A DNA stretch of 33,875 nucleotides from a virus. The stretch lies in UHGV virus genome UHGV-1463555; one strand, given 5' to 3'. The translations under genes were made by a program, and so were the position numbers. Below the pieces are notes generated by a model, which was not told the origin of the DNA, did no database searches, and saw nothing but the letters and a program-made list of their open reading frames with translations. Of this stretch, positions 1 to 28,977 are shown piece by piece (position 1 is the first letter of the stretch; the number at the start of each line of letters is the position of its first letter).

Positions 1-716
1 AAGAAAGCACGGAAACTAGCATCAGGGTGTTGAATGGTCAGATTGCATTGAAAGTGAGCAAAGATAAACTGTGTTCAGAAATATCAGCGACATCAGATGC
101 AATCACTTTTAAAACGGGTTACTTAATTATCGACACAAACAATTTTAAGTTATACAAAGATGGTACTGCATCATTTAGCGGGACAATCAATGGTGGATCT
201 ATCAATATAAATGATAAGTTTAAGGTATCATCTTCAGGCGCAGTGAGTGTAGATGCCATAACCTATGCAGACACGATCACTACACAGGGACTTTTGTATA
301 CAAATTATATGCGAATATCAGGGAATGCGGATGTCAGTGGAACGCTGACTGCAAATACAGTAACGGTATCTGGCGATGTGTCATGCGAAACATTGTATGA
401 AAGATCAGATAGGAGATTGAAGGAAAATATCAAAGAGATTCCGGATGAAACAGCCTTAAATTTAGTCTTGGGAATGAGACCAGTTACTTTTAAGTTTAAA
501 GATTCTGATCAAAGGTCAATGGGATTGATTGCCCAGGAGCTGGATGCACTTCAGAAAAAACTTGGAACAAATCTTCCTTTGGTAGATCATTCCGAAGAAT
601 ACCTATCAATTCCATATGGAAACAACAGCGTGTTATTTGCCGGAGCAATAAAGGCGCAGCAAAAGGAAATCAAAGAATTGGAAAAAGCTTTAAAAGAGCT
701 TAAGGAGGCAGCTTAG
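1..716 (+). CDS. Tail fibre protein, C-terminal part. Open from base 3 in frame 3 with no start, and continuous in frame with the ORF that runs off the window end (33650..33875). Ends in a peptidase-S74-type intramolecular chaperone / auto-cleavage domain.
   Basis: Frame 3 is open from position 3. The motif 'SDRRLKENI' followed by 'GLIAQEL' matches the start of S74 intramolecular-chaperone domains of phage tail fibres and endosialidases. 'GTINGGSININDKF' is shared with the 32695..33663 paralogue ('GNITGGSININNRF'). The coding repeat ggtggatctatcaatat is identical in both genes. Confidence 0.7.
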   Translation, partial: ESTETSIRVLNGQIALKVSKDKLCSEISATSDAITFKTGYLIIDTNNFKLYKDGTASFSGTINGGSININDKFKVSSSGAVSVDAITYADTITTQGLLYTNYMRISGNADVSGTLTANTVTVSGDVSCETLYERSDRRLKENIKEIPDETALNLVLGMRPVTFKFKDSDQRSMGLIAQELDALQKKLGTNLPLVDHSEEYLSIPYGNNSVLFAGAIKAQQKEIKELEKALKELKEAA

Positions 717-894: not shown

Positions 895-2160
895 ATGGCA
901 GTTGCATCTATTGTTGATTATTTGAAAAGCCGTAACATGGACAGCTCTTACGGAGCCAGAAAAAACCTTGCATCTCAGTATGGAATTACTGGATACAGCG
1001 GAACTGCACAGCAGAATATGTCACTGTTGAAGTCATTGCAGCAGTCTCAGAAATCACAGGCTGCGGGGCAGCAGAGTAATGCCAACAACCAGAATCAGAA
1101 CGTAACAATTACACCGGTGAGCGATGATGGCAAGACCGGACCGGGACATCCGGCGGCTACATACTTGACGGATTATAACTATGCAAAGTTTTCGCCATCT
1201 GCACGGACAACGGATTATGCTGACAGATTGGATGAAATTGAAAATAATAAGCCGGATGAATACTATAGCAAGTATCAAGGAACAATTGATGGGATCATTG
1301 ATAATATATTAAACAGGAAGTCATTTGACACGAATAGTGTATATGATTCAGATCTGTATAAAAACTACCGGGAACAGTATATCCAGCAGGGACAGAAAGC
1401 CATGAGGGATACCATGGGAGCAGCAACAGCGGCAACAGGTGGTTACGGATCCACTTATGCACAGGCAGCAGGACAGCAGGCGTATGACAATTACCTGAGC
1501 CAGCTGAACGATAAGTCATTTGACATATATGACCGTGTATATCAGCAGTATCTGAATGAAGGACAGGAATTGTATAACCGTCTGAATGCAGTAAATAACC
1601 AGGATAACATTGATTATAGCAGGTATAGAGACAGTGTAAATGATTACTACAATGATCTAAATTATTACGCTGGACGATATGATAGCTCATATAACCAGGA
1701 TTTTGGAGCATACCAGACAGATCTTTCTGCGCAGCAGTGGGCGGAACAGTACGCATACCAGAAGACCCAGGATGCACTTGCACAGCAGAACTGGCAGACA
1801 CAGTTTGACTATCAGAAACAGCAGGATGCATTGCAGCTGGAATTGCAGAGACAGCAGTTGGCGGCATCACTGGCTAAAAAAGCATCCGGAGGCAGTGGAG
1901 GAAGTAAAAGAGGTGGTAAATCAAGCAAGAAAACTTCTAGCTCTGCAACGGACCTGTCTAACTATGTGGCAGATGCGAAGAAGCTCCTTAATGCGAAAGA
2001 TGGTCATGGCATTAATTATTATGACGATTCGTATGTGATTGAGTATATCGCTGATAAATATCCAAGTCTTACAGATAGCCAGATTAAAAAAGTTATGACC
2101 CAGGCTGGTGGAGATTATGATAAGGGTCTGAGAACACTGAAAAAGATTACCGAAGAATAG
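895..2160 (+). CDS. Q/N/Y/D-rich low-complexity (prion-like composition) protein with an N-terminal ~45-aa module resembling short peptidoglycan-binding repeats (LysM/CW_7-like). Likely virion-associated.
   Basis: SD ggggaataagtATG. The N-terminus is 'VDYLKSRNMDSSYGARKNLASQYGITGYSGTAQQNMSLLKSL'. Residues ~150-330 are dominated by Q, N, Y and D (for example 'YDNYLSQLNDKSFDIYDRVYQQYLNEGQELYNRLNAVNNQDNIDYSRYRDSVNDYYNDLNYYAGRYDSSYNQDFGAYQ'). A GGSGGSKRGGKSSKK linker follows. The gene sits inside the late structural operon. Confidence 0.55.
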   Translation: MAVASIVDYLKSRNMDSSYGARKNLASQYGITGYSGTAQQNMSLLKSLQQSQKSQAAGQQSNANNQNQNVTITPVSDDGKTGPGHPAATYLTDYNYAKFSPSARTTDYADRLDEIENNKPDEYYSKYQGTIDGIIDNILNRKSFDTNSVYDSDLYKNYREQYIQQGQKAMRDTMGAATAATGGYGSTYAQAAGQQAYDNYLSQLNDKSFDIYDRVYQQYLNEGQELYNRLNAVNNQDNIDYSRYRDSVNDYYNDLNYYAGRYDSSYNQDFGAYQTDLSAQQWAEQYAYQKTQDALAQQNWQTQFDYQKQQDALQLELQRQQLAASLAKKASGGSGGSKRGGKSSKKTSSSATDLSNYVADAKKLLNAKDGHGINYYDDSYVIEYIADKYPSLTDSQIKKVMTQAGGDYDKGLRTLKKITEE

Positions 2161-2172
2161 GGGGCATAGAAA

Positions 2173-5100
2173 GTGGCTACTACGTTATCCAGTGTACTGA
2201 AAAAGAAGAAGGCAATGGAGGGATATCATCCTAAATTTGATAATGAGGATAATGATCCGCTAAGAAATGCGTCTGGAGAAAGAAGCTATGCCTCACAAGG
2301 AGGCGGAGCAGAGGAATACAGTGAACTGCGTACAATGTTAAATAAAAAAAAGGAAAGAGAACGGAAACAAAGGGAAGAGGCAGAAGCTGTAAGAAAAAAG
2401 CAAAGCGAAGAAAGAGCACAAAAAATACGTATTGAAGCTACAAAGCAACATACAACTGCCATGACAGATTTTGTACGTAGTGATCGCGAAAAGGTAGCAG
2501 AAAGCGCTATTCCTATGGCAGATGCAATAAAAAAGTATAAAGAATATAAAAAAAGCCAGCAAGAGCAACAGATATGGGAAAAAGCAAAGAACAAAATCGA
2601 TAAGGAAGAAAAAGAAAGCGGAATTGATTGGAATAATGTTGAAAATCAGTATGATGAACAGTATGATAGGGAGATTATCAAAGATTATAAGAAGAAAAAG
2701 TTAGATGAAAAAAAAGAGTTAAATAAACAGCAGGCAGAACGAAATAAAGTTGGTGTTGATTATGGTGGCTCTTTTATTAAATATACTGACATTCCTGAAA
2801 TGGATGATTTCAAAGAACAGGTTGAAAACGGAAAAAATAAACCCAATGCCGTATCAGGGATTCAGGTATTTACGCCACTTGATTATTTAAGTAAAGACAG
2901 GCGGGCATTAAGAAGATCATCCAAGGCTACAAATGATTGGATGAATGACGATGAAAAAAATGTATATTATTATTTGAACGGGAAAATTGGTCCACAAGCT
3001 GCGGAAAAATACATTGATTCGTTGCAAGCTGTATTAAATGAAAGAAGTGCAACTGATATCAAGGCTAATGCGCAGGACTTTGCAAAAAAACATCCAGTTG
3101 CAGGGGTAGTGGCAGATGCATTGACAGCAACATCAACAATGGCGGCATATCCGGCAATGGTTGCAAAATATGGATGGAGTGCTGCAAATGGCGATAAAGA
3201 TAATATAGATCCGAACGATCCTATGTTTACGGCCAGCGTATTAAACGAAGGATTTCAAAAAGGGGTATCAGAAAACGAAAGTCTTACCACACTTATCCCT
3301 AATGAAAATATAAGAAATTTTGCAGTGGGAACGGGTATGTCAATGGCGGAAAACATTGGACGGTTGCCTATGGGAGCGGTAGGATTAGCAGCAGCCGCAG
3401 GAGGAGCAGGATTATCCGCAACGAAAGATGCTGCTGAACGCGGAGGAAACATTCAACAGTCATTAGAGCTGGGAGCGGCAAATGCAGCAGCAGAGGCATT
3501 TTTCGAAAAGTTTTCGTTGGAGGGACTTGAAAAATTTAAGACACATCCTGGAAAGGGTGTAAGAGAATTTTTGAAAAATGTTGCAAAACAGGCAGTGACG
3601 GAAGGGTCGGAAGAAGTATTTACAGAAATTGCTAACACGCTATCTGATCAACTTATAATGGGAGAATTGTCTCAATATAACCAAGAATATGAAATATATA
3701 AAGCAAAAGGATTCAGTGAAAGTGAGGCTAGGAACAGGGCATTTGAAGATTTTTTGAAAAATGTAGCCATGTCGGGATTGGGAGGTGCTGTATCTGGTGG
3801 AATCATGGGAGCTGGTGGTCAGATCCTTGGAAATACTGAGAATAATAGAAGACTAGCAGACTACGGAAGCAGATTAAACCCTGATTACAGGGATTATTCG
3901 GAAGGAATTGATACAGACAGAAGCAGCTATCAGAATGAGGAAAGCTGGAAAGAGGCGGTAGATTTACAGCAGCTTGCTAAAGAATATGCAGAGCGGCAGA
4001 AAAACAAAGAATTTATTAAGAATCGAGACAAAGCTGAATATGACATTCGTATGCAGGAATGGTTTAATCGTGTACAGGCAGAACAGTCATCAGGTTCGGA
4101 TGCGAATGAAGGATTTCAGGATACACAGAATCAGATGAAAGAAGAACCGGTACAGGAAGAACCGCCAGTGCAGGAAGAAGAGCCGGTACAGGAAGACTGG
4201 TCAGTGCAAGGAGAGCAGCCAACGCAGGAAAATGTACAACAGAATACAGAGCAGAACCAGGCTGAACCTCAAATACAAAATGTACAGAATCCTACGGAAA
4301 ATGTACAAGAAACAGCAGACAATGTACAGAATCCGGTCACAGACACTCAGGAGGCGAAAGAGTACCGTTCAGGATATGGAAAGAACGGTGGTGAGGCTTT
4401 GGTCAATACATATGATGGATCTGTAGATGTATCTACATTCAACAAAGCATTTGGCCGTGCTTATGACGCAGGCTATAATCAGATCGATCTGGACACAGCT
4501 ACTCACTCGGCTTTAATGTCTCTTTTATCCGATCAGCAGATAGAAGCTGCCTACCGTGCCGGTATCCAGGATTATAATCTAGATAACCAGATTAAACCTC
4601 AGTACACACAGGGACAGCCCAAAGAGGGCGGTTTAGGCACTGTATCTGACTACGCAACACAGGATCAGCGCAATGTAGCAGAGCATATAGGAAAGAAAAC
4701 AGGCATTAAGATTAACCTGGTAGACAACCTTTCCCAGGAGAATGCAACAGCATCATATAAACCAGGAGAGATAACCATAAACATCAACTCCGAGGATTTT
4801 AACGGATCTCTTTCTCACGAATTGACACATTTTATTAAAGATACAGCCCCAGAATCTTACCGCTTGTATCAGGAGATCGTGACAGAAGCACAAATGAAGA
4901 CAACCGGAAAAGCCTGGGAAGATTTAGTAGAATCATACACCAACCGCTATAAGGATGCCGGGCAAGACCTCACCCGTCAGCAGGTAATGGAAGAGATTGC
5001 CGCAGATGCGACACAGAAATTCTTGAACGATCCGGATTTTATCGACCAGGTAGTAAAAAAAGATCGCAACTTAGCCCAGAAGATCATTGATTTCCTGTCA

Positions 5101-8100
5101 GATGTGATCGATTCGATCAAGAACCTGATCAAAACCGGCAGCACCCGTGCAGCAGCAAAGAATCTGGAACAGGATGTACAGATGTATGAAGATGCCCGCT
5201 ATGCTTGGCTGCTTGGTCTGGAGCAAGGTAGCAAGGACTATAAAGCAGGTAAAGAAAGAGCGGATAACATCATGCAAAGCAGCAAGTATGAATTAAATCA
5301 GTTTGGATTTGAGGAATACGGAGAGAAAGAGAAAGGCTGGTGGAAAAATAACGACAGTATCATAATATGCAACACAAAACAAGATATTGCAGATTTTTAC
5401 CGCGATCATGTCCACAAAAAACCATATGCAAGATTATATATTGGAAAAATAGGTCCAGAGCTCGCGCAACGGATTTACAAAGACACAGGAGTCAATACAG
5501 AAAATTTAAATGTTGCCATTACAAGCGAGTTTGAAGACAGCCATAGCAATCCAGAAAAAGAAAGATCGAGAGGGCAGACACCGGTAACGCCGGAGATACT
5601 ATCAAGACTTCCGGAAATTATATCAAGCTACGATAAGGTAGAAAATACAACCAGTTCCAAAGATAGAAAACCAGTTCTGAAATTCGAGAAGGATATTAAT
5701 GGAAAAAATGTTGCCGTAGAATATGTTAGAAGCAAGAAAGGAATGCTTGAGCTGCACACAATGTATGCGTGGGAAAATAAAAATAGCAGGAGTGTATCCA
5801 CTACGCTTACAATGCCAGAAAAAACTGACCCGTACAGAACGTCCGAAACGTATAGCGTCATTACTCCTGCTACTAAGGACAATATACAACCAGGTACAGA
5901 AAAAAGCAAGACTCGTTTCCAGTTGGATGATGTAGACGATACTATGAGTGAACGTAGAATTCAGGCATTGCAAGACCAAAATGAAGCTTTAAAGCAGGCG
6001 AATGATCTTCTGGAACAGCAGTTTAAGTTGACAGACAAGGATGCAGTGCGGACTGAGGATATCAAAAAAGTTGCAAGGAATATTTTGAAAGAGTATGGTA
6101 GCAAATATCCGAGTGAAACATTGGAAAGAAATCTGTCTAAGCTTTATCAGTATATCCGTGGTGCTGATCAGGTGGATGGACAAGCCATTACAGAAGCAGC
6201 TACCAGTATGGGTAAAAGCATCTTGAAAAAGTCACAATCGGTGGAAACAGAACAGACTGAAAGATATAAAGATGTGCGAGACTTGATAAAGAATACAAAA
6301 ATCTCAATTTCGGATCAAGATAAACCAGATCTTGCATCTGAAGGGGGATATAATGATTTCAGAAGACATAATTTTGGAAGGATGAAATTGGGAGCTGATG
6401 GAGTATCAATAGATTCATTTTATACAGATACATTAAACCCGGCAGATCCTGAAAAATTCCCTTTGAGCATAACACATCCAGCTGACCGACTGAAACAAGT
6501 AGCAGCATTTTTAGATGAAACAGCTCCGCAAGTTATAAATCCGTATGCTGCTGATATGGAAGAAATGTCATACATGATCGGTCAAGAAATTTTAGATTCG
6601 TATTTTGATGTGAGAAAACCAAGTGCGACGTTTGCTGATAAAAAAGAGGCTCAGATGCAAAAATTGCGCTGGCAGTATCAGCAGAAGATAAGAGACTATA
6701 AAAATGATTTGAAATCAAAGTATGATGAAAGCCTTAAACAGATTAAAAAGCAGAACCTTGAAGAAAGCGCACGCCTGGCAGAACAGTATAAAAACCTCAC
6801 AGAAGCAGAGCGAAAAGAGCAGAGGGAGTATTATAAAAAAAGGATGGATGATCTGCGAAACAGCAAGAACCAGGAATTGGCAGCCATGCAGCAGAGGAGC
6901 AAAGAGCGGATCAAGTCATTGAGGGAGAATCAGCAGAAAAGGGAAGATAAGAGACAGATCATCAAAGAAAGAAAAAAATTACAGAATTGGTTGCTGAAAC
7001 CGACTGATTCAAAGCATATTCCAGAGGGACTGAGACAATCTGTAGCGGCTTTCCTGAACAACATTGATTTTTCTCCAAATGATGAGGATAGTGAGATCAA
7101 GACCCAACGAAAAGAAGACTGGAAAGCAGCCCAGGATGCATTTAAGGAGATTCTAGATAATGGCGGTGTTTATGTGGACCCGAAGACTGGTGATACCATG
7201 ACCATGGATATTGACCCAGATATTGCACAGCGCATTCAGGAACTAATTGAAAAAACAAAGGGAATTGATAAACTGGATAACTTGGATGCATATAGCATGG
7301 GTGAGCTTAAAAAGACAGTTATGGCTATGAAAAAGGCTATAACAGAAGTAAATGATCTTAAGAGCAACAAAAAATCTGGAGAACTGAGTATTCTGGCAGA
7401 TGGAGTGTTTAGAGATCTGGAGCAGAGGCGGAATAAGGTGGAGTATGTAGGACCTGCGGGAATGGGAGATAAAATGTTGAATTATGACATGCTGGATCCG
7501 CAGACCATGTTTGGAAAAATGGGAGACAACATGAAGTCCACCTATGATGCATTGCGTAGCGGACTGGATAAAAAGACAGAAAAATTGAGATCTGCTCAGG
7601 AGTATGTGGATGATATTGTGGATAAGTATGGAATCAAGCCTAAAGAATTGCGTGAATGGACGGGATCAAATGCCAAGACACAGCATTTTAAGACTTCGAG
7701 AGGTGAGATTGATCTTACTGTAGCCCAGGTGATGTCGCTGTATGAGTTAAATAAAAGAAGCCAGGCCAGAGGACATATGTACGATCGAAAAGGCGGTATT
7801 AAGCAGGCACCGGTACTTGGAAAAGCTAAACTGGAAGGGAAAACTTATACACCGGCCCAGATAAAAAAGAACTATCGTCCTGTAAAGGTTACAGAGGCAG
7901 ATGTAGCAATGATTACAAAGACTTTAACACCGGCGCAGCGTGCTCTTGCGGATGGATTGCAGCAGTTTATGGGAGATCAGTGTGCAGCCTGGGGAAATGA
8001 AGTAACCATGGACATGTATGGTTATGAAAAATTCACAGCAAAGAACTACTTCCCAATTAGCACGGATAAAAACTATGTGGCAACCAGGCAGGGAGATGCG

Positions 8101-10239
8101 GGAAATAAAGAGGCAACTATTAAGAACATGGGAATCACCAAGAGTACAACCCCATATGCGAATAATCCATTGATTATTGAGGACATCTTTGATGTGTTTA
8201 GCCGCCAAGTTGATAATATGAGTACATACAATGCCTATGTGGTCCCACTGTCAGATCTTAATAAGGTGTACAACTATAAGGACGCAAGAGGAACAACAGA
8301 GTTTGGATCATCTATCAAAGAAGAGATAGAGAGGACTTTTGGAAAAGAGGGAAATGATTATATCAACAAACTGGTATTGGATATAAATGGTAGCATTAAT
8401 AAGGAACGAAGCATTAGTGATACGCTATTTTCCAACATGAAAGCAGCATCAGTTGCTGGAAATCTTCGCGTAGCCATTCAGCAGCCTACAGCGTATGTCA
8501 GAGCCTCAATGGAGATAAGCCCCAAGTATTTAGCACAAGGTGCTTTTACTATTACCAAGAAAGGCCAGTGGGACCTAATCTGCAAATATGCACCGATCGC
8601 GCAGTGGAAAGACTGGGGATTTTATCGGATGGATACCAGCCGCCAGATGAAAGACATCATGTTTAATACAGACAGCGCAAAGCAGAGGTTTGTGAACAGC
8701 ACAATGATCCTGGCAGAGAAAGGCGATGAGTTAGCTTGGAATCGCCTTTGGAGAGCTTGCGAATTTGAGTGTAAAGATCAGCATCCAGAATTAAAAGAAG
8801 GTTCAGAGGAGTTTTACACCCAGGTAGGTAAACGCTTTGGTGAAGTGGTAGATAAGACTCAGGTTGTTGATTCTGTATTGCATAGAACGCAGATCATGCG
8901 TAGCGAGAAAGATTTTAATAAATTAATAACAAGTTTTATGGCAGAACCACTAAAGACGTATGATATGTTATATCGGGCGGCTGTAGATTTAAAAACAGGC
9001 AAACCAGGTTCTCGGAAAATGGCTGTAAGAGCGGCGACTGTATTTACAATGACTAACATTATCACAGCGCTTGCGGCATCAGTGGTTGATGTGATGCGCG
9101 ATAACGATCGCGATAAGAACCTTAAGGAGAAGTACCAAGAAAACGTAGAATCTAATTTTTGGGACAACATGAATCTCTTAAATAATGTACCATATGTAAA
9201 AGAAGTTTTCTCTATGATGGCCGGATATTCTCCTAAGCGTGCAGATTTAGCAAGCATTGAGGATTTGTATTATGCCTGGAATCGTATCGATCAGTTACGA
9301 GAGGGAAACAGTCAATATACACCGCAGTATGTGGCGATATATTCTGCTCAGATGGCAAGTAAATTAACAGGTATCCCGATTAAGGGTCTTACACGTGATA
9401 TGGGAGCTGTAGCGGATACGATATTTGATAGCATAGGAGGAAAAGCAGACTATGCTTGGTTAAAACAGAAGTACGATATTGGAAGCAAGCAGAACTTGAA
9501 TATGTATGTTGGTATGATGGTGCAGGCACATAGAAGCGGAGATCAGGACTTCCAGCAAAAAATCAAAACGGATCTTAATAAGGCTGGCATCGATAACGAT
9601 ACCATTACAAAAAAAATTAAGACCATTATCAAATCAGAACTGATCACTAAAACCACAGTGAATCCGCTTGTTGATGCGGCAGCCCAGGCAAAAACAGCCT
9701 ATGATCTGGAAAAATATGAAAAGATAGCAGAGCAGCTGACAGCTCAGGGGTATGCGCCTAAACTGGTTAAGTCAGCCATAGATGCAAGAATTAAGCAGCT
9801 TGAAGGCTCTGGGGATGATATAGACTGGGAAGAAGAGGCAGAAACAGAACCGGATAGCCTGTATGGAGATATCCTGATGGATCAGGATGCATCAGAGGAT
9901 AGCAGCAGTGTAACATTCTATAGCAATTCGGATCTTCTGGCAGCAATAGGCCAGTATGATAATAAAAATGCTAAATCTCTGGATCCTTTTAAAAAGATGG
10001 CAGATGCCATTGTAAAAAGTAAAGTGGATGAAGGAAAGACACAGAAAGAGGCTGCAGGTTCGATTAAAACATCCATTACGAGTCATTATAAGCCTTTATG
10101 GATTGCAGCCGACAGAAAAGGCAGAGAAGAGATCCAGAATGTCCTTAAACAGCTTAAGGTAAATGGAAAGGCATTGTATACCGGAGAGGATTGGACGAAT
10201 TGGAATAAGGCAGCAAAAAAGAAGCAAAAGAAGCAGTAG
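2173..10239 (+). CDS. Giant (2,688 aa) multidomain virion-associated protein. It contains a zincin-like HExxH metallopeptidase motif. It is a candidate ejected internal or polyvalent protein.
   Basis: A single uninterrupted frame-1 ORF with start GTG/ATG near 2173-2215. The N-terminus is lysine/glutamate-rich. An acidic E/P/V/Q tandem-repeat tract lies at ~aa 655-730. The motif 'SHELTHFIKD' (HExxH) is at ~aa 875. All antisense ORFs inside are short and low-complexity. It is the last gene of the late operon, after the tail fibres. Confidence 0.75.
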   Translation: MATTLSSVLKKKKAMEGYHPKFDNEDNDPLRNASGERSYASQGGGAEEYSELRTMLNKKKERERKQREEAEAVRKKQSEERAQKIRIEATKQHTTAMTDFVRSDREKVAESAIPMADAIKKYKEYKKSQQEQQIWEKAKNKIDKEEKESGIDWNNVENQYDEQYDREIIKDYKKKKLDEKKELNKQQAERNKVGVDYGGSFIKYTDIPEMDDFKEQVENGKNKPNAVSGIQVFTPLDYLSKDRRALRRSSKATNDWMNDDEKNVYYYLNGKIGPQAAEKYIDSLQAVLNERSATDIKANAQDFAKKHPVAGVVADALTATSTMAAYPAMVAKYGWSAANGDKDNIDPNDPMFTASVLNEGFQKGVSENESLTTLIPNENIRNFAVGTGMSMAENIGRLPMGAVGLAAAAGGAGLSATKDAAERGGNIQQSLELGAANAAAEAFFEKFSLEGLEKFKTHPGKGVREFLKNVAKQAVTEGSEEVFTEIANTLSDQLIMGELSQYNQEYEIYKAKGFSESEARNRAFEDFLKNVAMSGLGGAVSGGIMGAGGQILGNTENNRRLADYGSRLNPDYRDYSEGIDTDRSSYQNEESWKEAVDLQQLAKEYAERQKNKEFIKNRDKAEYDIRMQEWFNRVQAEQSSGSDANEGFQDTQNQMKEEPVQEEPPVQEEEPVQEDWSVQGEQPTQENVQQNTEQNQAEPQIQNVQNPTENVQETADNVQNPVTDTQEAKEYRSGYGKNGGEALVNTYDGSVDVSTFNKAFGRAYDAGYNQIDLDTATHSALMSLLSDQQIEAAYRAGIQDYNLDNQIKPQYTQGQPKEGGLGTVSDYATQDQRNVAEHIGKKTGIKINLVDNLSQENATASYKPGEITININSEDFNGSLSHELTHFIKDTAPESYRLYQEIVTEAQMKTTGKAWEDLVESYTNRYKDAGQDLTRQQVMEEIAADATQKFLNDPDFIDQVVKKDRNLAQKIIDFLSDVIDSIKNLIKTGSTRAAAKNLEQDVQMYEDARYAWLLGLEQGSKDYKAGKERADNIMQSSKYELNQFGFEEYGEKEKGWWKNNDSIIICNTKQDIADFYRDHVHKKPYARLYIGKIGPELAQRIYKDTGVNTENLNVAITSEFEDSHSNPEKERSRGQTPVTPEILSRLPEIISSYDKVENTTSSKDRKPVLKFEKDINGKNVAVEYVRSKKGMLELHTMYAWENKNSRSVSTTLTMPEKTDPYRTSETYSVITPATKDNIQPGTEKSKTRFQLDDVDDTMSERRIQALQDQNEALKQANDLLEQQFKLTDKDAVRTEDIKKVARNILKEYGSKYPSETLERNLSKLYQYIRGADQVDGQAITEAATSMGKSILKKSQSVETEQTERYKDVRDLIKNTKISISDQDKPDLASEGGYNDFRRHNFGRMKLGADGVSIDSFYTDTLNPADPEKFPLSITHPADRLKQVAAFLDETAPQVINPYAADMEEMSYMIGQEILDSYFDVRKPSATFADKKEAQMQKLRWQYQQKIRDYKNDLKSKYDESLKQIKKQNLEESARLAEQYKNLTEAERKEQREYYKKRMDDLRNSKNQELAAMQQRSKERIKSLRENQQKREDKRQIIKERKKLQNWLLKPTDSKHIPEGLRQSVAAFLNNIDFSPNDEDSEIKTQRKEDWKAAQDAFKEILDNGGVYVDPKTGDTMTMDIDPDIAQRIQELIEKTKGIDKLDNLDAYSMGELKKTVMAMKKAITEVNDLKSNKKSGELSILADGVFRDLEQRRNKVEYVGPAGMGDKMLNYDMLDPQTMFGKMGDNMKSTYDALRSGLDKKTEKLRSAQEYVDDIVDKYGIKPKELREWTGSNAKTQHFKTSRGEIDLTVAQVMSLYELNKRSQARGHMYDRKGGIKQAPVLGKAKLEGKTYTPAQIKKNYRPVKVTEADVAMITKTLTPAQRALADGLQQFMGDQCAAWGNEVTMDMYGYEKFTAKNYFPISTDKNYVATRQGDAGNKEATIKNMGITKSTTPYANNPLIIEDIFDVFSRQVDNMSTYNAYVVPLSDLNKVYNYKDARGTTEFGSSIKEEIERTFGKEGNDYINKLVLDINGSINKERSISDTLFSNMKAASVAGNLRVAIQQPTAYVRASMEISPKYLAQGAFTITKKGQWDLICKYAPIAQWKDWGFYRMDTSRQMKDIMFNTDSAKQRFVNSTMILAEKGDELAWNRLWRACEFECKDQHPELKEGSEEFYTQVGKRFGEVVDKTQVVDSVLHRTQIMRSEKDFNKLITSFMAEPLKTYDMLYRAAVDLKTGKPGSRKMAVRAATVFTMTNIITALAASVVDVMRDNDRDKNLKEKYQENVESNFWDNMNLLNNVPYVKEVFSMMAGYSPKRADLASIEDLYYAWNRIDQLREGNSQYTPQYVAIYSAQMASKLTGIPIKGLTRDMGAVADTIFDSIGGKADYAWLKQKYDIGSKQNLNMYVGMMVQAHRSGDQDFQQKIKTDLNKAGIDNDTITKKIKTIIKSELITKTTVNPLVDAAAQAKTAYDLEKYEKIAEQLTAQGYAPKLVKSAIDARIKQLEGSGDDIDWEEEAETEPDSLYGDILMDQDASEDSSSVTFYSNSDLLAAIGQYDNKNAKSLDPFKKMADAIVKSKVDEGKTQKEAAGSIKTSITSHYKPLWIAADRKGREEIQNVLKQLKVNGKALYTGEDWTNWNKAAKKKQKKQ
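4141..4340 (+). repeat. Coding low-complexity tandem repeats inside the giant gene (EEPVQ x3, then NVQN/NVQE x5).
   Basis: gaagaaccggtacaggaagaaccgccagtgcaggaagaagagccggtacaggaa followed by repeated aatgtacag(a/g)a units. Translates to EEPVQEEPPVQEEEPVQ...QNVQNPTENVQETADNVQNP. Confidence 0.6.
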
Positions 10240-10245
10240 GAATAG

Positions 10246-10539
10246 GGAGGACCAGGTATCATAAAAAGTACCTGGTTTTTTCTATGCAATAGTAATTTAA
10301 ACTTTTATTATAGAGGCGAAAATCCAAATAAAGATGTAAAAACATTAGCAAGTGGTATTTACCAAATTGACGGTGGAAATGAAGCATACACCCCCACCAG
10401 ATGGGGAATGTTGATTGTCTTTTCGGCACCTAATTATGGATATGCCCTATTTACTCATACAGATGGATCTGTGTACGTGCGCACATGGTCTCAAAGGAAT
10501 GGTAGTTATTATATCGACTGGAAGAAGTTATCCAATTAA
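10246..10539 (+). other. Start-less open cassette (97 sense codons) directly after the TAG-GAA-TAG at the end of the giant gene and in the same frame. Putative alternative or archived receptor-binding C-terminal domain (cassette A+).
   Basis: Frame 1 is open from 10246 to TAA at 10537-10539 with no ATG, GTG or TTG before the repeat. It encodes GGPGIIKSTWFFLCNSNLNFYYRGENPNKDVKTLASGIYQIDGGNEAYTPTRWGMLIVFSAPNYGYALFTHTDGSVYVRTWSQRNGSYYIDWKKLSN. It is homologous to the current C-terminus of the 26357..27814 tail fibre (MLIVFSAPNY against MILFAISPNW, and GSVYVRTWSQRNG against GSFRVFGNLSSKQ). Confidence 0.55.
10287..10299 (+). repeat. Junction repeat copy 1 (caatagtaattta, in-frame N-S-N-L). Inverted partner at 10889..10901. 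A 16-mer caatagtaatttaaac is shared with 28322..28337 (reverse complement).
   Basis: Exact 13-bp match to the reverse complement of 10889..10901 and of 28325..28337. The codons aat-agt-aat are in frame in all four copies. Confidence 0.8.
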
Positions 10540-10585
10540 AATCATGCATCTGTTTTTTTTAGAAGTATACATGTAAATGATCATT

Positions 10586-10912
10586 TTACTTATGCGTCAA
10601 CGTAAAATCTCTATTGGATATAATGACGCATTCATCCCAAGTACCCATTCCAGTAATTGATAAACGCGCTACCTTTCCCACACTATTGCAAGCCACTTTA
10701 TATGTAGACCGATTTACAAGAGCAGTGACATTTCCAATATTATGAAAAGAATATAGTCCTCCATCAGCTATGACCAAACCGCAAAAATGACTGCTGTCTA
10801 TTATGGATGTTGCAAATACTTGTGTGTATTCTCCTTCATTGGCAATTTTTTTGATGTATACATTACTGATGCAGCTGCTAACGATTGCTAAATTACTATT
10901 GTGAGAGTGCAT
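10586..10912 (-). CDS. Small protein (108 aa) beginning MHSHNSNL. Putative variable receptor-binding tip protein or cassette (A-). It is the only cassette with its own start codon.
   Basis: ATG at 10910-10912 (minus strand). Codons 4-8 are the junction repeat (HNSNL). The body 'AIVSSCISNVYIKKIANEGEYTQVFATSIIDSSHFCGLVIADGG...' shares motifs with the start-less minus-strand cassette at 28034..28337 (IKKIANEG against IKIAEVG, and VIADGG against VIATLCGG). Confidence 0.55.
   Translation of the reverse strand: MHSHNSNLAIVSSCISNVYIKKIANEGEYTQVFATSIIDSSHFCGLVIADGGLYSFHNIGNVTALVNRSTYKVACNSVGKVARLSITGMGTWDECVIISNRDFTLTHK
10889..10901 (-). repeat. Junction repeat copy 2 (inverted).
   Basis: The plus strand reads taaattactattg, which is the reverse complement of caatagtaattta. 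Confidence 0.8.
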
Positions 10913-11102: not shown

Positions 11103-12575
11103 TCATAATGTGTAGTAAAAGAAAGTAAAAGTGCCGGTTTTACGGTCAAAAACGATCTTTTTCAGGATGCGGCGGAGCGCGTTGCTTTTTTCAACATAAC
11201 TTACATCAGGATCAAGGATAAGGTCATAAACAGTGGAGATCTGGGCCAGTAGCTTTTCTTTACTTTGCTGTGGATTCGGGGCAGAGGGCTGGCCCTGCTG
11301 CAGCTTCTCTAGCTGCGAAAGAATTTCCGCACGTTCTGATTTCAGTCTTACTTTATTATTCTTGTATTCTTCCAGTGTGTCAATTTCGCTTTCATAAGCT
11401 TCTTTTATTCGTCTTTCTTTCACATCCAGCCGGGACAGAGCTTCTTTTAACAAAGCTTCCTCTGTTAGTGTTACAGGATTCTCCGGAGGGATGTACTCAT
11501 AAGTGACATCATGACTTTCCAGGGCAGAGCGCAGGGAGTCCAAAACAGCCCGCTCAGCTATACTTACGGAAACACTGCAGGAATCAGGATGTACCCCTTT
11601 GCTGTACTTCCAGCACTGAAAAAAAGAGGGGCGCCGCTTCTCGTCTTTCGTGCGGTTAAACCCCAAGCTCCCACCACAGACACCACATTTCAGCAATCCA
11701 GACAGCCAATGAGCAGTGGCAGAGGCCTGCTTGCGGTGACGGGGCTGGTATTCGGACTGGATCCGCGCCTGAACAGACTCAAACACAGAAGTTACGGCCG
11801 GAATCGTCTCATGGGTGCCATGAAACGTGATCCCATTCCAAGTCACATCACCAACATAGAACCGGTTAACCAGAATTCTTTGGACACCGCGAAGCTCAAA
11901 GGGACATCCGCGGTTGGTTTTATATCCTTGCAGGTTCAGATCCCTGGCAATGGTCAACATGTCTTTTCCCTGGCTGTACGCCTGGAAGATGTACTCAACG
12001 ATAGGCACCGCATCTGGATCCAGCACAAAAGGCCGGCCGCCGCCCACAGCTTTATATCCAAGGCATGGGACTGCCTGATAGCCGGACCGGAGCGCTTTTT
12101 CGGTCATTCCCCTGAGAACTTCACCAGAAAGATTATAAGAGTAGTATTCATCAAACCATTCTATGATTGTTTCAATCAGTCGGCCAAACATGCCGTCTGC
12201 AATAGGTTCAGATACGCTTTTGATCTCCACGCCGCATTTTTTGCGCAGGATTCCTTTGTAAAATGTGCTTTCTTCCTGGTTGCGGGCAAAACGGGAGAAT
12301 TTCCACAGGTACAGCCGCTTGAAGGGTGAAGGCTTCTGAGACTTGGCAACTGCAATCATTCTCTGAAATTCCGGCCGGTTGTCAGCCTTACGGCCTGAGA
12401 TCCCCTTCTTTTCCTCAAAGATAAATTCCTTTGGAATAATATAACCATCAGCTTTAGCTGTTTCCATAATCACACGGATCTGGGCGTCTGGTGACAATTC
12501 TGCCTGATCATCTGTACTGACTCTGATATAGGCAGCACCGATTTCAAGACTTTTTGGTGTAGGTTTATCTGACAT
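11103..12575 (-). CDS. Large serine recombinase (phage serine integrase).
   Basis: The N-terminal resolvase fold carries the catalytic serine in 'AAYIRVSTDDQ'. A recombinase domain, a Cys-rich zinc ribbon (CGVCGG...CWKYSKGVHPDSC) and a C-terminal coiled coil follow. It is 490 aa and is the only long minus-strand gene. Confidence 0.9.
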   Translation of the reverse strand: MSDKPTPKSLEIGAAYIRVSTDDQAELSPDAQIRVIMETAKADGYIIPKEFIFEEKKGISGRKADNRPEFQRMIAVAKSQKPSPFKRLYLWKFSRFARNQEESTFYKGILRKKCGVEIKSVSEPIADGMFGRLIETIIEWFDEYYSYNLSGEVLRGMTEKALRSGYQAVPCLGYKAVGGGRPFVLDPDAVPIVEYIFQAYSQGKDMLTIARDLNLQGYKTNRGCPFELRGVQRILVNRFYVGDVTWNGITFHGTHETIPAVTSVFESVQARIQSEYQPRHRKQASATAHWLSGLLKCGVCGGSLGFNRTKDEKRRPSFFQCWKYSKGVHPDSCSVSVSIAERAVLDSLRSALESHDVTYEYIPPENPVTLTEEALLKEALSRLDVKERRIKEAYESEIDTLEEYKNNKVRLKSERAEILSQLEKLQQGQPSAPNPQQSKEKLLAQISTVYDLILDPDVSYVEKSNALRRILKKIVFDRKTGTFTFFYYTL

Positions 12576-15650: not shown

Positions 15651-16265
15651 ATGGACATATATGGATACATGAGAGTATCATCGAAAGAACAAAATGAGGA
15701 TAGGCAAAGAATTGCTCTAATGGCAGCAGGAGTGCATGAAAAGAATATCTTTATTGATAAGCAGTCCGGCAAAGATTTTGAGAGGACACAGTATAAGCGG
15801 ATGCTCAGAAAACTTAACGAGGACAGCGTGCTGTACATAAAATCTATTGACAGGCTTGGAAGGAATTATGCAGATCTGAATGAGCAATGGCGTATCATCA
15901 CGAAAGAGAAGAAAGCCGATATTGTGGTAATTGATATGCCTCTGCTGGATACACGCAGGGAGAAGAATCTGCTGGGAACATTCATAAGCGATATTGTTCT
16001 GGCATTGCTCAGTTATGTCGCAGAAAACGAACGGATCAATATCAAGCAAAGGCAGGCAGAGGGAATTGCTGCAGCAAAAGCAAGAGGTGTTATATTTGGC
16101 AGACCGTCATTACCAATCCCGGAGAATTTTGATCAAATGCATAAGGATTGGAGAGCTGGAAAGATCAAGATAGAGTATGCTGCCAGAGCCTGCAATATGT
16201 GTTCCAAGACCTTCTATAGCAAGGCGGTGAAACTTGAAAAGGAGATGAATGTAGATGGATATTGA
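15651..16265 (+). CDS. Small serine recombinase of the resolvase/invertase family (Hin/Gin-like).
   Basis: The 204-aa protein has 'GYMRVSSKEQNEDRQ', matching the catalytic-serine motif of Hin/Gin/resolvases (GYIRVST.DQ). 'DRLGRN' and a C-terminal HTH-like tail are present. Confidence 0.85.
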   Translation: MDIYGYMRVSSKEQNEDRQRIALMAAGVHEKNIFIDKQSGKDFERTQYKRMLRKLNEDSVLYIKSIDRLGRNYADLNEQWRIITKEKKADIVVIDMPLLDTRREKNLLGTFISDIVLALLSYVAENERINIKQRQAEGIAAAKARGVIFGRPSLPIPENFDQMHKDWRAGKIKIEYAARACNMCSKTFYSKAVKLEKEMNVDGY

Positions 16266-17056: not shown

Positions 17057-18094
17057 ATGACAAATGAGAATGTTAAAACACAGGTTATTAATGATGTAAT
17101 CGTTGCCATGTCAGCATATATTGCTGCTGATTTAATCCAAATTCTGGAGCGTGTGATAGTTGACAAGACGATAGATGTGGTTATGGAAAGAATCAATACG
17201 CTACCGGCAGAGATTAAGGATAGTGTGGATCAACAGAATGAGTACATAATTAAACTCTTTTTATATAAGAAGAAAAAGCTTCGTGAAGGGACTAAATATG
17301 GTTATATGGCATCAATCAAACGCCTGATCACGGTGTTGGACAAGCCACTGGTGCAGATGGATGAACATGATATATTTTATTACCTAAATTGGTATGAGAA
17401 CCGGAATGTACCAGTAACCGGACGAAAAAATCAGAACTCAACTTTGAATAGCGAAAGAAGGTATTTGTCCGCTTTCTTTTCCTGGATGCGGAAAGAAAAG
17501 CTTATAACGGTAAATCCAGTTGAAGCAATCGAGCCATTAAAGGTGCAGAGAAAGCCTATAGATTTCTTTACACCGGAAGAAATGGCACGTTTAAGAGACA
17601 GTTGCCGGACCTTACGGGAACGAGCCTTAATTGAAGTACTGCGCAGTACCGGGGCACGCGTAGGAGAAATTGTTGAGATAACTGTTGACCAGATCAACTG
17701 GGAAACAGGGGATATTTTGATTCTAGGTGAAAAAAGTAACCGGTATCGGACCATATATCTGGATCCGGATGCTTTATACCATTACAAAAAATATTGGAAC
17801 TCTAGGACAGACAACAATGAACATATGTTCGTATCGAAGAGCAAGCCTTATAAGCCAATAGGGACATCTTCGGTACGGACAATCATGAAAGAAATTGCGG
17901 AACACGCAGGTGTGACAAACCGGTGTTATCCTCACAAGATGAGGAAGACACTGGGAATGGAGTTGAAAAACAGAGGCGTAGATATAGGAACGATCCAGGA
18001 AGTCCTGGGTCACGCGGATTCTAAAGTAACGAGTATGTACTATGCTCAATCAACACCGGACACGTTGAGGATGATTAGAAAAAGGGCAGTTTAA
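17057..18094 (+). CDS. Tyrosine site-specific recombinase (phage integrase / XerC-D family).
   Basis: The 345-aa protein has an N-terminal SAM-like domain. Catalytic signature residues are present in 'TGARVGEI' (Arg), 'HKMRKT' (His-x-x-Arg), 'VLGHAD' and 'TSMYYAQ' (Tyr). Confidence 0.85.
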   Translation: MTNENVKTQVINDVIVAMSAYIAADLIQILERVIVDKTIDVVMERINTLPAEIKDSVDQQNEYIIKLFLYKKKKLREGTKYGYMASIKRLITVLDKPLVQMDEHDIFYYLNWYENRNVPVTGRKNQNSTLNSERRYLSAFFSWMRKEKLITVNPVEAIEPLKVQRKPIDFFTPEEMARLRDSCRTLRERALIEVLRSTGARVGEIVEITVDQINWETGDILILGEKSNRYRTIYLDPDALYHYKKYWNSRTDNNEHMFVSKSKPYKPIGTSSVRTIMKEIAEHAGVTNRCYPHKMRKTLGMELKNRGVDIGTIQEVLGHADSKVTSMYYAQSTPDTLRMIRKRAV

Positions 18095-18226: not shown

Positions 18227-19132
18227 ATGAAGCACTACGATAACTATGATTATGAATCAGCATTTAATCAACAGGCAGATAAGTTACAAGAATGGGAGAT
18301 TGAAAAGTTGATCTCTGAGCAGCGGGTGAGCTGCCTTTATAGGACAACAACGAATAGATCTAAAAATCTGGTGAGTGGTGACGAGCTGCTAGAATCACAG
18401 GTGTATCCATCCTTCCTGAAAAGGGGAGATATGCCAGTAACCCTGAAAAAGAGAGAAACCAAACCGTCACAAAAAAATCTGAATGATAAGAACTCAAGAA
18501 GGTATTGCATCAGACTGGCCTGCATCAATTTTGGCAAAGGCGATATCTGGGCAACATTTGGTTGGAATGATGAGTACATGCCAGGAGATGCCAAAGCTGC
18601 TATCAAGGATATTCGGAATTTTATTACGAGGATAAACTATCGCAGAAAAAAGAATGGACTGAAAAATATTAAATACATATACATCCTGGCATTTGATGGA
18701 AAAGTCCGTCCACATTTCCACATCCTTATGACAGGAGAGGGTGTGGATCGTGATGAGCTGGAAGATATGTGGAAAAAGTGTGACCGAAAAAATACTCGGA
18801 GAATTAAGCCAGATGAGGATTTTTTGATTACAGGATTAGCAACATACATTACGAATAACCCAAGAGGTACAAAAAGATGGTGTGCCTCCAAGAACCTGAA
18901 AAAGCCACCGGAACCGACCAGAAGTTACGGAAAGTTCCGCAGAGGGAAAGTGAACCGGATGGTAAAAAATGATGATACCATGCGACAGGAAATGGAAAAA
19001 GCCTATCCAGGATATAAGTTCCTCGATGCAGAGGTTAAATACAATCCGGATCTGGCGATGTTTTACATCTATGCCCGGATGATTAAGCATGGATCCTGTG
19101 AAGATATGCAGAAAGTGGGAAAGAGAAGTTGA
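18227..19132 (+). CDS. rep: Rolling-circle replication initiator, HUH endonuclease superfamily (pC194/Rep_1-like).
   Basis: 'RPHFHILM' matches the HUH motif 2 of RCR initiators (NPHFHVL). The downstream 'LATYITN' supplies a candidate catalytic Tyr. The protein is 301 aa and basic. Confidence 0.6.
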   Translation: MKHYDNYDYESAFNQQADKLQEWEIEKLISEQRVSCLYRTTTNRSKNLVSGDELLESQVYPSFLKRGDMPVTLKKRETKPSQKNLNDKNSRRYCIRLACINFGKGDIWATFGWNDEYMPGDAKAAIKDIRNFITRINYRRKKNGLKNIKYIYILAFDGKVRPHFHILMTGEGVDRDELEDMWKKCDRKNTRRIKPDEDFLITGLATYITNNPRGTKRWCASKNLKKPPEPTRSYGKFRRGKVNRMVKNDDTMRQEMEKAYPGYKFLDAEVKYNPDLAMFYIYARMIKHGSCEDMQKVGKRS

Positions 19133-23686: not shown

Positions 23687-24048
23687 CAGAAATAACATTT
23701 GAAAACGTGCCAGGATACTTTCGCTTAAAGGTGGAAGGCCATGCCGGATATGGATGCGCTATGGGACTTCCGGAAGGGCATGACATCGTGTGCGCTGCGG
23801 TATCTGCCATTGGACAGACGGCAGCACAGTGTATGATCGACCTAGGAGAAGAAAAAGCAGTAGTGATTCAGGACTTGCAGATCAAAGATGGATTGATAGA
23901 TATTCGCGTTTTGGTCAAGAAAAAAGCACAGAAGCGCCTGAATGCAATGGTTTATACCATACAGAGAGGGTATGAAACATTAAGCAAATCTCACCCGGAA
24001 TTTGTCCATATGAACGTAAAGTCTGGGGTGGTAGAGAAGAAAAAATGA
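23683..24048 (+). CDS. Prp-like cysteine protease (ribosomal-processing protease YsxB/DUF464 family), the putative head-maturation protease.
   Basis: 'EGHAGYGCAMGLPEGHDIVCAAVSAIGQTA' matches the Prp signature 'GHAG...G.DIVCAAVS' with the catalytic His and Cys. The protein is 121 aa. The gene lies between portal and scaffold. Confidence 0.75.
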   Translation: MTEITFENVPGYFRLKVEGHAGYGCAMGLPEGHDIVCAAVSAIGQTAAQCMIDLGEEKAVVIQDLQIKDGLIDIRVLVKKKAQKRLNAMVYTIQRGYETLSKSHPEFVHMNVKSGVVEKKK

Positions 24049-28653: not shown

Positions 28654-28977
28654 ATGAAGAAAGCAATGCTTAGTCAGCCAATGGCTGGAAAAACAGATGA
28701 AGAGATTATTGCAACTAGGGAACAGGCAATCAAGGCCCTGGAAGCCAAAGGCTATGAAATTGTAAACACCTTGTTTACTGATGAATGGTACAGCAATGAA
28801 AAGATGAAAGAACGTGGAGTGGTACAGATTCCTCTTTGCTTTCTTGCTAAAAGTCTGGAAAATATGTCACTTTGTCATGCAGCTTATTTCTGCAAGGGTT
28901 GGGAAAATGCCAGAGGGTGCCGGATTGAGCATGATGCAGCAGTAGCTTATGGGTTAGATGTGATTTACGAAGCGTAA
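28654..28977 (+). CDS. Hypothetical protein. Faint resemblance to DUF4406 / nucleoside-deoxyribosyltransferase-like phage proteins.
   Basis: The 107-aa protein starts 'MLSQPMAGKTDEEI...EQAIKALEAKGYEIVN'. SD ggagagagaaaaattATG. Confidence 0.45.
   Translation: MKKAMLSQPMAGKTDEEIIATREQAIKALEAKGYEIVNTLFTDEWYSNEKMKERGVVQIPLCFLAKSLENMSLCHAAYFCKGWENARGCRIEHDAAVAYGLDVIYEA

Follow-up and report, generated by a model that had tools for sequence, protein, structure and literature searches.

A giant phage protein with a zincin-like domain and an exchangeable internal cargo slot, a candidate ejection protein of temperate gut phages

The window analysed here is the whole 33,875-nt stretch of UHGV virus genome UHGV-1463555, and all coordinates refer to it. 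It contains a giant open reading frame (ORF; 2173..10239, plus strand, as are all parts of it given below) that encodes, from a GTG start, a 2688-aa polyvalent protein of the phrog_22978 family. We found that this protein is a fixed chassis in which an N-terminal region, a zincin-like peptidase domain, one internal cargo slot, a core and a C-terminal tail follow one another. Two disparate activities are joined in the one polypeptide, a zincin-type HExxH domain and a predicted PBECR3 RNase, and on sequence grounds we describe it with high confidence as polyvalent, with a zincin of active type and RNase cargo. Its role is probably that of virion cargo or of an ejection protein in a temperate, short-tailed Lachnospiraceae phage with a P22-type portal. 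An initial annotation made from the DNA alone had called the gene one continuous ORF; indeed, its 2,688 codons are intact, with 0 internal stops.

The division into five blocks comes from pairwise mapping against homologues, of which a homologue search returned 422. The blocks comprise aa 1-~760, the zincin domain at ~780-1035, the slot at ~1038-1247, the core at 1248-~2440 and the C-terminal tail at 2441-2688. The protein is collinear over its full length with phrog_22978, a family of 3,513 positions whose function is not annotated. Zincin followed by core was the order in 111/118 representatives of at least 2000 aa, and the gap between the two ranged from ~1 to ~1,130 aa.

Zincin-like domain and cargo slot

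The zincin-like (gluzincin-type) metallopeptidase domain occupies aa 780-1035 (4510..5277). The HExxH motif that had been noticed near residue 875 is the only one in the protein: it lies in SHELTHFIKD, with HELTH at aa 882-886 (4816-4830), followed by Y896 and a putative third ligand, E941 (4993-4995). HELTH was kept in all of 21 homologues, down to 47% identity, and also in relatives of 23-28% identity. A word-indexed homologue search with the HExxH region alone returned 6 fragments only. When a profile of aa 780-1035 was searched against 1.84 billion cluster representatives, 4,695 matched at E ≤ 1e-3 and 3,119 at E ≤ 1e-10; the best 150 matches are mostly 2,000-3,650 aa long and carry the domain at residues ~600-1100. 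We measured conservation in 150 representatives of distinct 50%-identity clusters. H882, E883 and H886 were each present in 150/150, T885 in 148/150 and Y896 in 147/150, and E941 was found in 148/150 (Asp in the other 2) within the context (D/E)-E-x-x-A-(D/N), in which A944 was kept in 143/150 and D945 in 116/150 (Asn in a further 29).

An insert of ~55 residues separates the HExxH helix from the helix bearing the downstream Glu. HExxH with a downstream Glu is the gluzincin signature, in which E941 would act as a zinc ligand, and the same arrangement was described for the metallopeptidases of polyvalent proteins (Iyer et al. 2017, PMC5512222). Given the invariance of the signature in the 150 representatives, HELTH is not fortuitous. 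Judged by this conservation, a function of the HExxH motif is certain and its place in a zincin active site very probable, and the earlier reading as a zincin-like peptidase is strengthened by a gluzincin-type signature that extends across thousands of relatives.

The AlphaFold model of aa 290-1250 is poor overall (mean pLDDT 48.6). Its zincin region reaches pLDDT 60-83 and shows, in the order expected of a zincin, a helix, three strands, the HExxH helix (587-602 in model residue numbering), the insert and the Glu helix (646-662). Searched against PDB sequences, the zincin profile gave 10 weak matches, all at E ≥ 0.59, 7 of which are zincins; among the weak matches, selecase, thermolysin and aureolysin are aligned on the HExxH motif. 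An ArdC-like fold, which the initial annotation had suggested looking for around aa 820-1000, was not found. MPTase-PolyVal (PF18818, gathering score 27.5 bits) had no match in the giant protein, whole or tiled, and the best relative reached 16.4 bits (E 0.01). A route to this Pfam family through gp47 of phage phi24B also failed, as Pfam does not cover the HExxH regions of that protein either.

The cargo cassette of the window protein spans aa 1038-1247 (5284..5913). Inside it, a Pfam scan of 400-aa tiles identified a predicted PBECR3 RNase (PF18812) at aa 1092-1204 (5446-5784), with an E-value of 1.3e-14; its score of 54.5 bits exceeds the gathering score of 30. Tiling in this way recovered one of the further domains that inspection by eye had left unresolved. 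A Pfam hmmscan of the whole protein had missed PBECR3, presumably owing to the composition-bias filter acting on the K/E-rich regions; it gave no significant match and one chance match at E 0.66. Giant proteins of biased composition should accordingly be scanned in tiles. An NCBIfam scan of all parts of the protein gave no match. H1124, E1130, R1133 and T1196 of PBECR3 are conserved in 11 diverse homologues, and the conserved His and C-terminal Thr agree with the configuration of a His plus a C-terminal Thr/Ser described for PBECR domains. The top Foldseek matches of the region were the CdiA-CT toxin 6cp9 and HigB2 5jaa, both weak (E 0.6-2.2).

In relatives, the PBECR3 cassette is replaced, extended or absent. 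The protein P0011, with flanks 98-99% identical to those of the window protein, carries PBECR3 plus ART-PolyVal; P0086, P0097 and P0115 carry LPD3; P0088 carries PBECR3 plus PBECR5; MT838554, a faecal phage scaffold, carries LPD3 plus PBECR3; and P0192 carries ART. PBECR5 was found in 14/15 representatives with a long slot, MuF_C or LPD23 in several further relatives, and nothing in the slot of P0094. The Pfam domains detected in orthologues are PF18760, PF18798, PF18814, PF18819 and PF18838. The earlier suggestion of a polyvalent protein gains from these results, with PBECR3 above its gathering score and ART-PolyVal, LPD3, PBECR5 or MuF_C in the same slot of relatives.

These observations also bear on the idea that the protein is a structural tail component of the conventional kind (a tape-measure-like, needle or hub protein) whose HExxH arose by chance. 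The protein is very long, helical, partly coiled-coil and has Gly/Ala-rich hydrophobic stretches, and its gene follows the fibre genes, all as such a protein might have it. The HExxH, Tyr and Glu signature runs across the 150 cluster representatives, however, and Pfam RNase cargo is present; a slot length that varies from ~1 to ~1,130 aa is incompatible with the function of a ruler; and the phage has a P22-type portal, with no tube, sheath or chaperone genes found. We regard a tail protein as very improbable, and a tape-measure or tail protein with a fortuitous HExxH, the outcome named beforehand as speaking against the initial annotation, is excluded by the conservation and domain results.

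Junction motif and cassette exchange

A peptide motif, (I/V)-R/K-F/Y-x-L, opens each cassette and also the core itself, as read from the sequences. In the window protein, the first copy, K1038-Y-E-L (5284..5295), stands at the cassette start in a linker of pLDDT <50, and the second, R1248-F-Q-L followed by DDVDD (5914..5925), stands at the core start, where residues 1-11 of the core model also have pLDDT <50. We counted the pattern [RK][FYW]x[LIVM] in 100 representatives, with the expectation taken from its overall density. A copy lay within 20 residues of the core start in 58/100 (7 expected) and near the zincin end in 65/100 (8.7 expected). The logo of the motif is (I/V)-R-F-(Q/S)-L-(E/K)-(D/E)-(V/T)-(D/E). 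Its density per 100 aa was 0.48 in the slot versus 0.11 elsewhere, and the number of copies grew with slot length (class means 0.6, 1.5, 2.8, 3.0 and 4.8; r = 0.69). All Pfam cargo domains examined sit between two consecutive motifs, in P0011, P0088, the MT838554 protein (locus L002), P0251, P0192 and the window protein.

Exchange at the motif could be followed at nucleotide level. The P0011 gene (locus L085) contains a 594-nt ART cassette that is absent from the window gene, with both flanks 98% identical; the inserted DNA has 35% GC, compared with 41% for the gene. The break falls inside the Q-L codons of junction motif 2, and the motif is found on both sides of the insertion, written CGT TTC CAG TTA in one copy and AGA TAT CAG CTG in the other. 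Across loci, the codons used in the motif number five for Arg, four for Ser and six for Leu; between copies in the same gene, only ~60% of the 12 nt agree. Such synonymous diversity of codons indicates selection on the peptide and not a DNA recombination site. DNA microhomology as the cause of the motif was rejected on the same two grounds, the ~60% of shared nucleotides and the synonymous-diverse codons.

The two halves of the gene can differ in descent. Upstream of residue ~1250, P0084 and P0086 are 54% and 47% identical to the window protein, and downstream the values are 88% and 74%; with such different histories of the N- and C-terminal halves, the joint at the core start is a recombination point. 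The junction motif was not seen at the boundary between core and Peptidase_M23 in the clade described below, and it is not clearly present in phi24B gp47. Iyer et al. 2017 (PMC5512222) make no mention of cut sites or boundary motifs.

Core, flanking regions and genomic setting

The conserved core module (aa 1248-2440, 5914..9492) is mostly helical. Q/K/E-rich coiled regions had been described in the middle third of the protein, in line with which aa 1501-1600 contain 29 K/R, 19 D/E and 13 Q and two very long helices, of 54 and 65 residues, are predicted at aa ~1487-1608. A well-predicted alpha/beta part lies at aa ~1780-2250, and the AlphaFold model of the core has a pLDDT of 78.9 and a pTM of 0.67. 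With a distant faecal-phage fragment, MT838833 (35% identical), as the search seed, 203 further proteins were collected, and the module common to them is aa ~1250-2420. Many polar residues of the core are invariant, among them H1868, N1942, K2090, Q2104, R2110, K2146, D2185 and D2233, and a 59-sequence alignment gave the motifs WGNE, YFPI, QQPTA..RA, W.WG and TQVVDS. The most hydrophobic helix of the protein (aa 2283-2309, 9019..9099) is followed by a conserved acidic cluster, RDDDRD.

PDB sequence searches, run with the full-length protein, a profile of the core and two of the zincin, returned only low-complexity helical or non-significant matches, and no solved structural counterpart of the core was found. 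Against predicted viral structures, Foldseek gave 92 matches to the core at E ≤ 1e-3, with TM-scores of 0.4-0.58 and 10-30% identity. Nearly all of them are pieces of giant proteins of uncultured tailed phages, and the informative names among them are MuF_C, nuclease, ART-PolyVal and LPD. For Tenacibaculum phage Gundel_1, a weak BFVD match annotated as 'structural protein', the literature gave nothing usable. In the GenBank phage collection, megablast found nothing and tblastn found two unannotated faecal scaffolds only, even with a distant core query; none of the cultured phages in that collection carries the core module.

The C-terminal tail (aa 2441-2688, 9493..10236) is conserved in nearer clades only, and one distant clade has Peptidase_M23, a cell-wall endopeptidase, in its place. 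A divergence hot spot was observed at 8770..9970 (aa ~2200-2600), inside the core and the tail: among 69 near-identical relatives, the N-terminal half is 98-99.9% identical and aa 2201-2400 only 71-78%, which reflects local divergence or recombination.

At the other end, aa 1-290 (2173..3042) are K/E-rich and, by composition, probably coiled or disordered. The charged N-terminus of the initial annotation is borne out by 46 K/R and 41 D/E in the first 200 aa; it is missing from some homologues, which begin at query residue 173 or 210. The following Gly/Ala-rich region (aa ~300-640, 3070..4092) is helical and partly hydrophobic and contains the glycine-zipper-like stretches GLGGAVSGGIMGAGG and LPMGAVGLAAAAGGAGLSA. 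It is conserved, with an invariant E/E pair, in 15 distant representatives and corresponds to positions 424-667 of phrog_22978; its structure model is of low confidence. An acidic or Q-rich repeat linker (aa ~650-760, 4120..4452, pLDDT <50) comes next. The EEPVQ/NVQN repeat tract reported there was resolved by TRF into two short imperfect tandem arrays, one of 18 nt (EEPVQE x3.2, 4139-4196) and one of 21 nt (NVQNPTE x2.8, 4277-4334). Near-identical relatives differ in the copy numbers of these arrays; EEPVQE is present in ~1 to 7 copies among relatives that are otherwise 92-99% identical. Length differences among close relatives arise partly because this copy number varies, the rest being due to other indels, notably near aa 1250. 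A regular expression for the Walker A pattern found none in the giant protein, as the initial annotation had stated.

The giant gene is preceded by a constant partner gene, p421 (895..2160, +), whose product has a DUF3597-like N-terminal segment of ~50 aa, a conserved middle block ('AM.DT.G.AAALTGGYGSSYA') and a Q/N/Y-rich region, with no known family match. The ribosome-binding site (RBS) of the giant gene, GGGGG, lies 8 nt 5' of the GTG and overlaps the p421 stop codon. Directly past the giant-gene stop, we read from the sequence a terminator-like hairpin, ACCAGGTA / TACCTGGT and then TTTTTT (10251..10282, +); owing to its 10-nt loop, it escaped an automatic terminator scan. Where the phage is seen integrated, the giant gene is the final prophage gene, with host genes next to it. 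Its placement as the last gene of the late operon holds on both counts, the hairpin with its T-run and the terminal position in the prophage.

We compared 77 loci with the core, taken from species-representative genomes; nearly all belong to gut or rumen Clostridia (Lachnospiraceae, Oscillospiraceae, Ruminococcaceae, Christensenellales). In 43/77, p421 is directly upstream of the giant gene. Two gene orders were seen. In that of the window, the pair ends the series MCP-p100-p123-p522-(fibres)-p421-giant, so placing the giant gene after the fibre genes in the structural operon, the virion gene module, of a short-tailed phage. In the second, terL-portal-p121-p421-giant-scaffold-MCP-p100-p123-p522 (L052, L057, L062 and L068, with L058, L063 and L078 matching as far as they extend), the pair stands between portal and scaffold. 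The portal-scaffold interval is the classical site of MuF/gp7 minor head protein genes in SPP1- and Mu-type head modules.

Since a 313-aa tail-fibre gene with a Peptidase_S74 chaperone domain runs uninterrupted across its ends (33650..33875 plus 1..716), the window forms a closed circle of 33,875 bp; it lacks a terminal repeat. The giant ORF takes up 8067/33875 of the circle, or 23.8%, matching the ~24% reported before. Head and packaging genes comprise the small and large terminase, a P22-type portal (PF16510) and a major head protein; the lysis genes are a holin and a lysozyme with choline-binding repeats; and both fibre genes encode Peptidase_S74 chaperone domains. The genome further encodes two integrases, one of the serine and one of the tyrosine type, an invertase, a replication initiator and repressor-type genes. 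No tape-measure, tube, sheath or tape-measure chaperone gene was found. The phage is temperate, podovirus-like and of Lachnospiraceae, with Enterocloster-like hosts; the named relatives were found in Clostridium sp. AM22-11AC and in Enterocloster bolteae, clostridioformis, citroniae and lavalensis.

Several neighbouring genes deserve a record of their own. Three site-specific recombinases are packed into 34 kb, at 11103..12575 (-), 15651..16265 (+) and 17057..18094 (+); two are of the serine type, a large integrase and a small invertase/resolvase, and one is a tyrosine integrase. The replication initiator (18227..19132) matches phrog_3584, and Pfam REP_ORF2-G2P barely above threshold, a rolling-circle-type Rep family that is unusual in a tailed temperate phage. 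Between the head and lysis genes, a small gene resembling DUF4406 or nucleoside 2-deoxyribosyltransferase (28654..28977) occupies the spot at which close relatives have a Tad2-like gene (PF11195; L004/L005, 2418..2927). Tad2 is an anti-Thoeris protein, and with a DUF4406-like and a Tad2-like gene alternating at one position, the place looks like an exchangeable slot for counter-defence morons. Between the giant ORF and the integrase, a start-less open frame at 10290..10540 (+), ending ...GYALFTHTDGSVYVRTWSQRNGSYYIDWKKLSN*, resembles the C-terminal remnant of a fibre-like gene, and a 108-aa ORF at 10586..10912 (-) is conserved in the nearest relative only. Finally, a 121-aa protein encoded between the portal and scaffold genes (23683..24048) matches phrog_4478 ('peptidase'); genes of this type accompany the portal in L052, L062 and L068, and the protein is an alternative candidate for processing the giant protein.

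Known systems and competing explanations

The closest described class is that of the polyvalent proteins of phages and conjugative elements, for which packaging and processing by the metallopeptidase were predicted, and whose PBECR RNases were proposed to cleave host RNA in takeover or counter-defence (Iyer et al. 2017, PMC5512222). As in that class, several unrelated effector-type domains are joined in one giant polypeptide among virion genes; the hub is a zincin-like metallopeptidase; the cargo consists of PBECR, ART, LPD and MuF_C domains; and orthologues are mosaic. The window protein differs from the 2017 descriptions in its fixed chassis with a single internal slot, in its ~1,200-aa core without a Pfam match and in the motif at cassette starts, and its zincin falls outside Pfam MPTase-PolyVal. 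Members of the same protein family have been noted in phages phi1 and phi4 of C. clostridioforme LM41, as an unusually large ORF of 8 kb at the 3' end of the genome, ~20% of its length, described as hypothetical with limited LPD3 similarity (PMC11318856, 2024). These phages are released spontaneously, and the particles seen were mostly podovirus-like (PMC11318856). Their ORFs are like ours in family and 3'-end position and unlike it in cargo, which is PBECR3 here and not LPD3. P0104, from a 7.78-Mb contig of E. clostridioformis, is 51% identical to the giant protein over 97% of its length.

The virion precedent comes from gp47 of phi24B, a temperate podovirus. This protein of 2,811 aa with LPD5, LPD1, LPD38 and MuF-C domains was abundant in virions by mass spectrometry and invisible in cryo-EM maps, and the authors propose an encapsidated ejection protein (bioRxiv 10.64898/2026.04.10.717836). 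In the phi24B genome, gp47 is the last gene and a 421-aa gene comes just before it, the same layout as in the window phage. The zincin profile matched both HExxH regions of gp47, a weak relationship for which hhalign gave E 1e-4 over 42 columns around the strands and the motif, and gp47 carries MuF_C cargo. It shares with the window protein, as do 933W-like gp47 proteins, giant size (2,807-2,811 aa), polyvalent organization and a temperate short-tailed phage; in contrast, it has LPD5, LPD1 and LPD38, two HExxH motifs and a Gram-negative host. Homology of the core to gp47 was rejected by hmmsearch and hhalign, and the N-terminus likewise lacks homology. Between p421 and the 421-aa protein of phi24B, there was no demonstrable homology, the one match being biased and Q-rich; their identical length may thus be coincidental. 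Collectively, these comparisons mark gp47 as an analogue with a related peptidase and not an orthologue.

Ejection proteins of podoviruses are stored in the head and expelled to bridge the envelope, and T7 gp16 bears a wall hydrolase. The giant protein resembles T7 gp14-16, P22 gp7/gp16/gp20 and the N4 gp50 virion RNA polymerase (vRNAP) in being large, mostly helical and encoded in the structural module, and its M23 clade carries a wall hydrolase as T7 gp16 does. It differs from them in that no similarity of sequence or fold was found, in that one polypeptide would replace several, and in its exchangeable enzymatic cargo. Polymorphic toxins (CdiA with VENN, Rhs with PxxxxDPxGL) and MuF-toxins likewise join a conserved delivery part to exchangeable toxin-type domains (BECR RNases, ARTs), with a short conserved peptide exactly at the exchange point. 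Here, however, the cassettes are internal and stackable, the motif is a different one, and delivery would be by the virion instead of a secretion system. No immunity gene was identified next to the giant gene, for which no systematic search was made; the small downstream ORF is conserved in the nearest relative only. To MuF / SPP1 gp7, the likeness is confined to the portal-scaffold position in some relatives and MuF_C cargo in relatives; the giant protein has no Pfam match to Phage_Mu_F.

We propose that the giant protein and p421 would be built into the procapsid or head. On infection, they would pass out by way of the portal and the tail channel, ahead of the DNA or together with it, in the manner of N4 vRNAP and the core proteins of T7 and P22. 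By gene context and analogy, packaging and ejection are probable. Help in crossing the Gram-positive wall and membrane may come from the helical core, from the hydrophobic helix (aa 2283-2309) and from the Gly/Ala-rich N-terminal region, and in distant relatives from the M23 wall hydrolase added at the same end. The zincin may then cut at the basic-aromatic-x-Leu joints and free the PBECR3 RNase cargo. Many zincins prefer a hydrophobic P1' residue, and cleavage at such joints fits because of this preference. The freed RNase could act on host RNA in takeover or counter-defence. Self-cleavage at the junction motif is the tentative part of this scheme, and we put it somewhat below an even chance.

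An extended form of the proposal, which we hold to be rather doubtful, sees the protein as a cassette-swapping chassis for effector delivery, with the motif as the recognition site of the gluzincin, self-cutting after ejection and a core that represents a new envelope-crossing fold. The products would be an N-terminal part with the peptidase, one or more free effectors (RNases, ADP-ribosyltransferases, LPDs) and a core of ~165 kDa. The same motif would provide in-frame joints for the exchange of cassettes between phages, and the core would do the job of T7 gp15/16 or of P22 E-proteins in Gram-positive gut podoviruses.

Several results weigh against virion cargo or ejection with self-processing. 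No true transmembrane segment was predicted in the N-terminal region, where hydropathy reaches at most 1.35. The many invariant polar residues of the core suggest that it may be an unrecognised enzyme and not a conduit. The core has no similarity to the ejection proteins of T7, P22 or N4 type or to phi24B gp47, so that the ejection role is argued from context and analogy only. No Pfam zincin model reached threshold in the giant protein or its relatives, and Foldseek gave no significant fold match for the zincin with the weak model of aa 290-1250 (pLDDT 48.6). The motif could have another role, such as a docking or assembly signal, and in N4 vRNAP a peptidase-containing region is kept for encapsidation while the protein is packaged uncleaved.

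The last two points lead to the alternative that survives best, one that we nevertheless judge unlikely: the protein goes into the virion and is ejected, yet its zincin leaves it unprocessed. The role of the peptidase would then be an attack on host targets (defence proteins or wall peptides) or one in encapsidation only, as the unprocessed packaging of N4 vRNAP would suggest, and the motif would be an element of assembly, docking or folding. A wall-degrading role of the peptidase was in fact proposed by the phi24B authors (bioRxiv 10.64898/2026.04.10.717836). However, the motif stands ahead of the core and of cassettes whose folds are unrelated, lies in predicted flexible linkers and is conserved at the level of the peptide, which is the pattern of a recognition site. 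Moreover, the zincin is always upstream of the slot, and the series basic, aromatic, x, Leu agrees with the preference of many zincins at P1'.

Less probable still is a non-packaged cytoplasmic protein, expressed late or in lysogeny, that acts in the producing cell in host takeover, superinfection exclusion or abortive infection. A location at the prophage end by the attachment site is typical for morons, the carried RNase is toxin-like, and variability among close relatives is clustered in particular segments, as in conflict genes. Set against this, the gene is co-oriented and contiguous with the structural genes without a promoter-sized gap, the p421 stop overlapping the RBS of the giant gene, and in other lineages the pair lies between portal and scaffold. 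Fusion of M23 to the core is sensible only for a protein that meets the wall from outside, and the analogous phi24B protein is present in virions. A virion-carried RNA polymerase of N4 type, to which giant size, a podovirus and a zincin-like peptidase would point (N4-like vRNAPs are always fused to such peptidases), is the least probable of all and can be dismissed in practice, since neither Pfam, NCBIfam nor PHROGs gave a polymerase family match, the sequence matched none of the solved structures, and the phage is temperate, with repressor-type genes of its own.

Virion cargo or ejection remains the preferred reading, and part of it was already known: the class since 2017, the phrog_22978 catalogue entry, the 2024 remark on LM41 and the 2026 virion report for the analogue. 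New, as far as the searched literature shows, are the single internal cargo slot, the peptide motif at its joints and a ~1,200-aa core common to thousands of giant phage proteins. The 2017 prediction was that polyvalent proteins enter the host with the phage DNA and that their own metallopeptidase then cuts them into active pieces. The family described here, whose peptidase domain has 4,695 cluster representatives, is common in prophages of Lachnospiraceae and Oscillospiraceae in the human and animal gut. For cut sites and the rules of domain exchange, it makes a clean test bed, having a single peptidase, a single slot and a short motif at the joints. Should the motif not be a cleavage site, the locus would remain a clearly bounded case of a known class. 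If it is one, three point mutants would be enough to test the processing hypothesis, and effector boundaries could be read from sequence alone. The slot would then reveal how temperate gut phages trade in payloads of RNases and ADP-ribosyltransferases, and chosen cargo could be loaded into virions by means of it.

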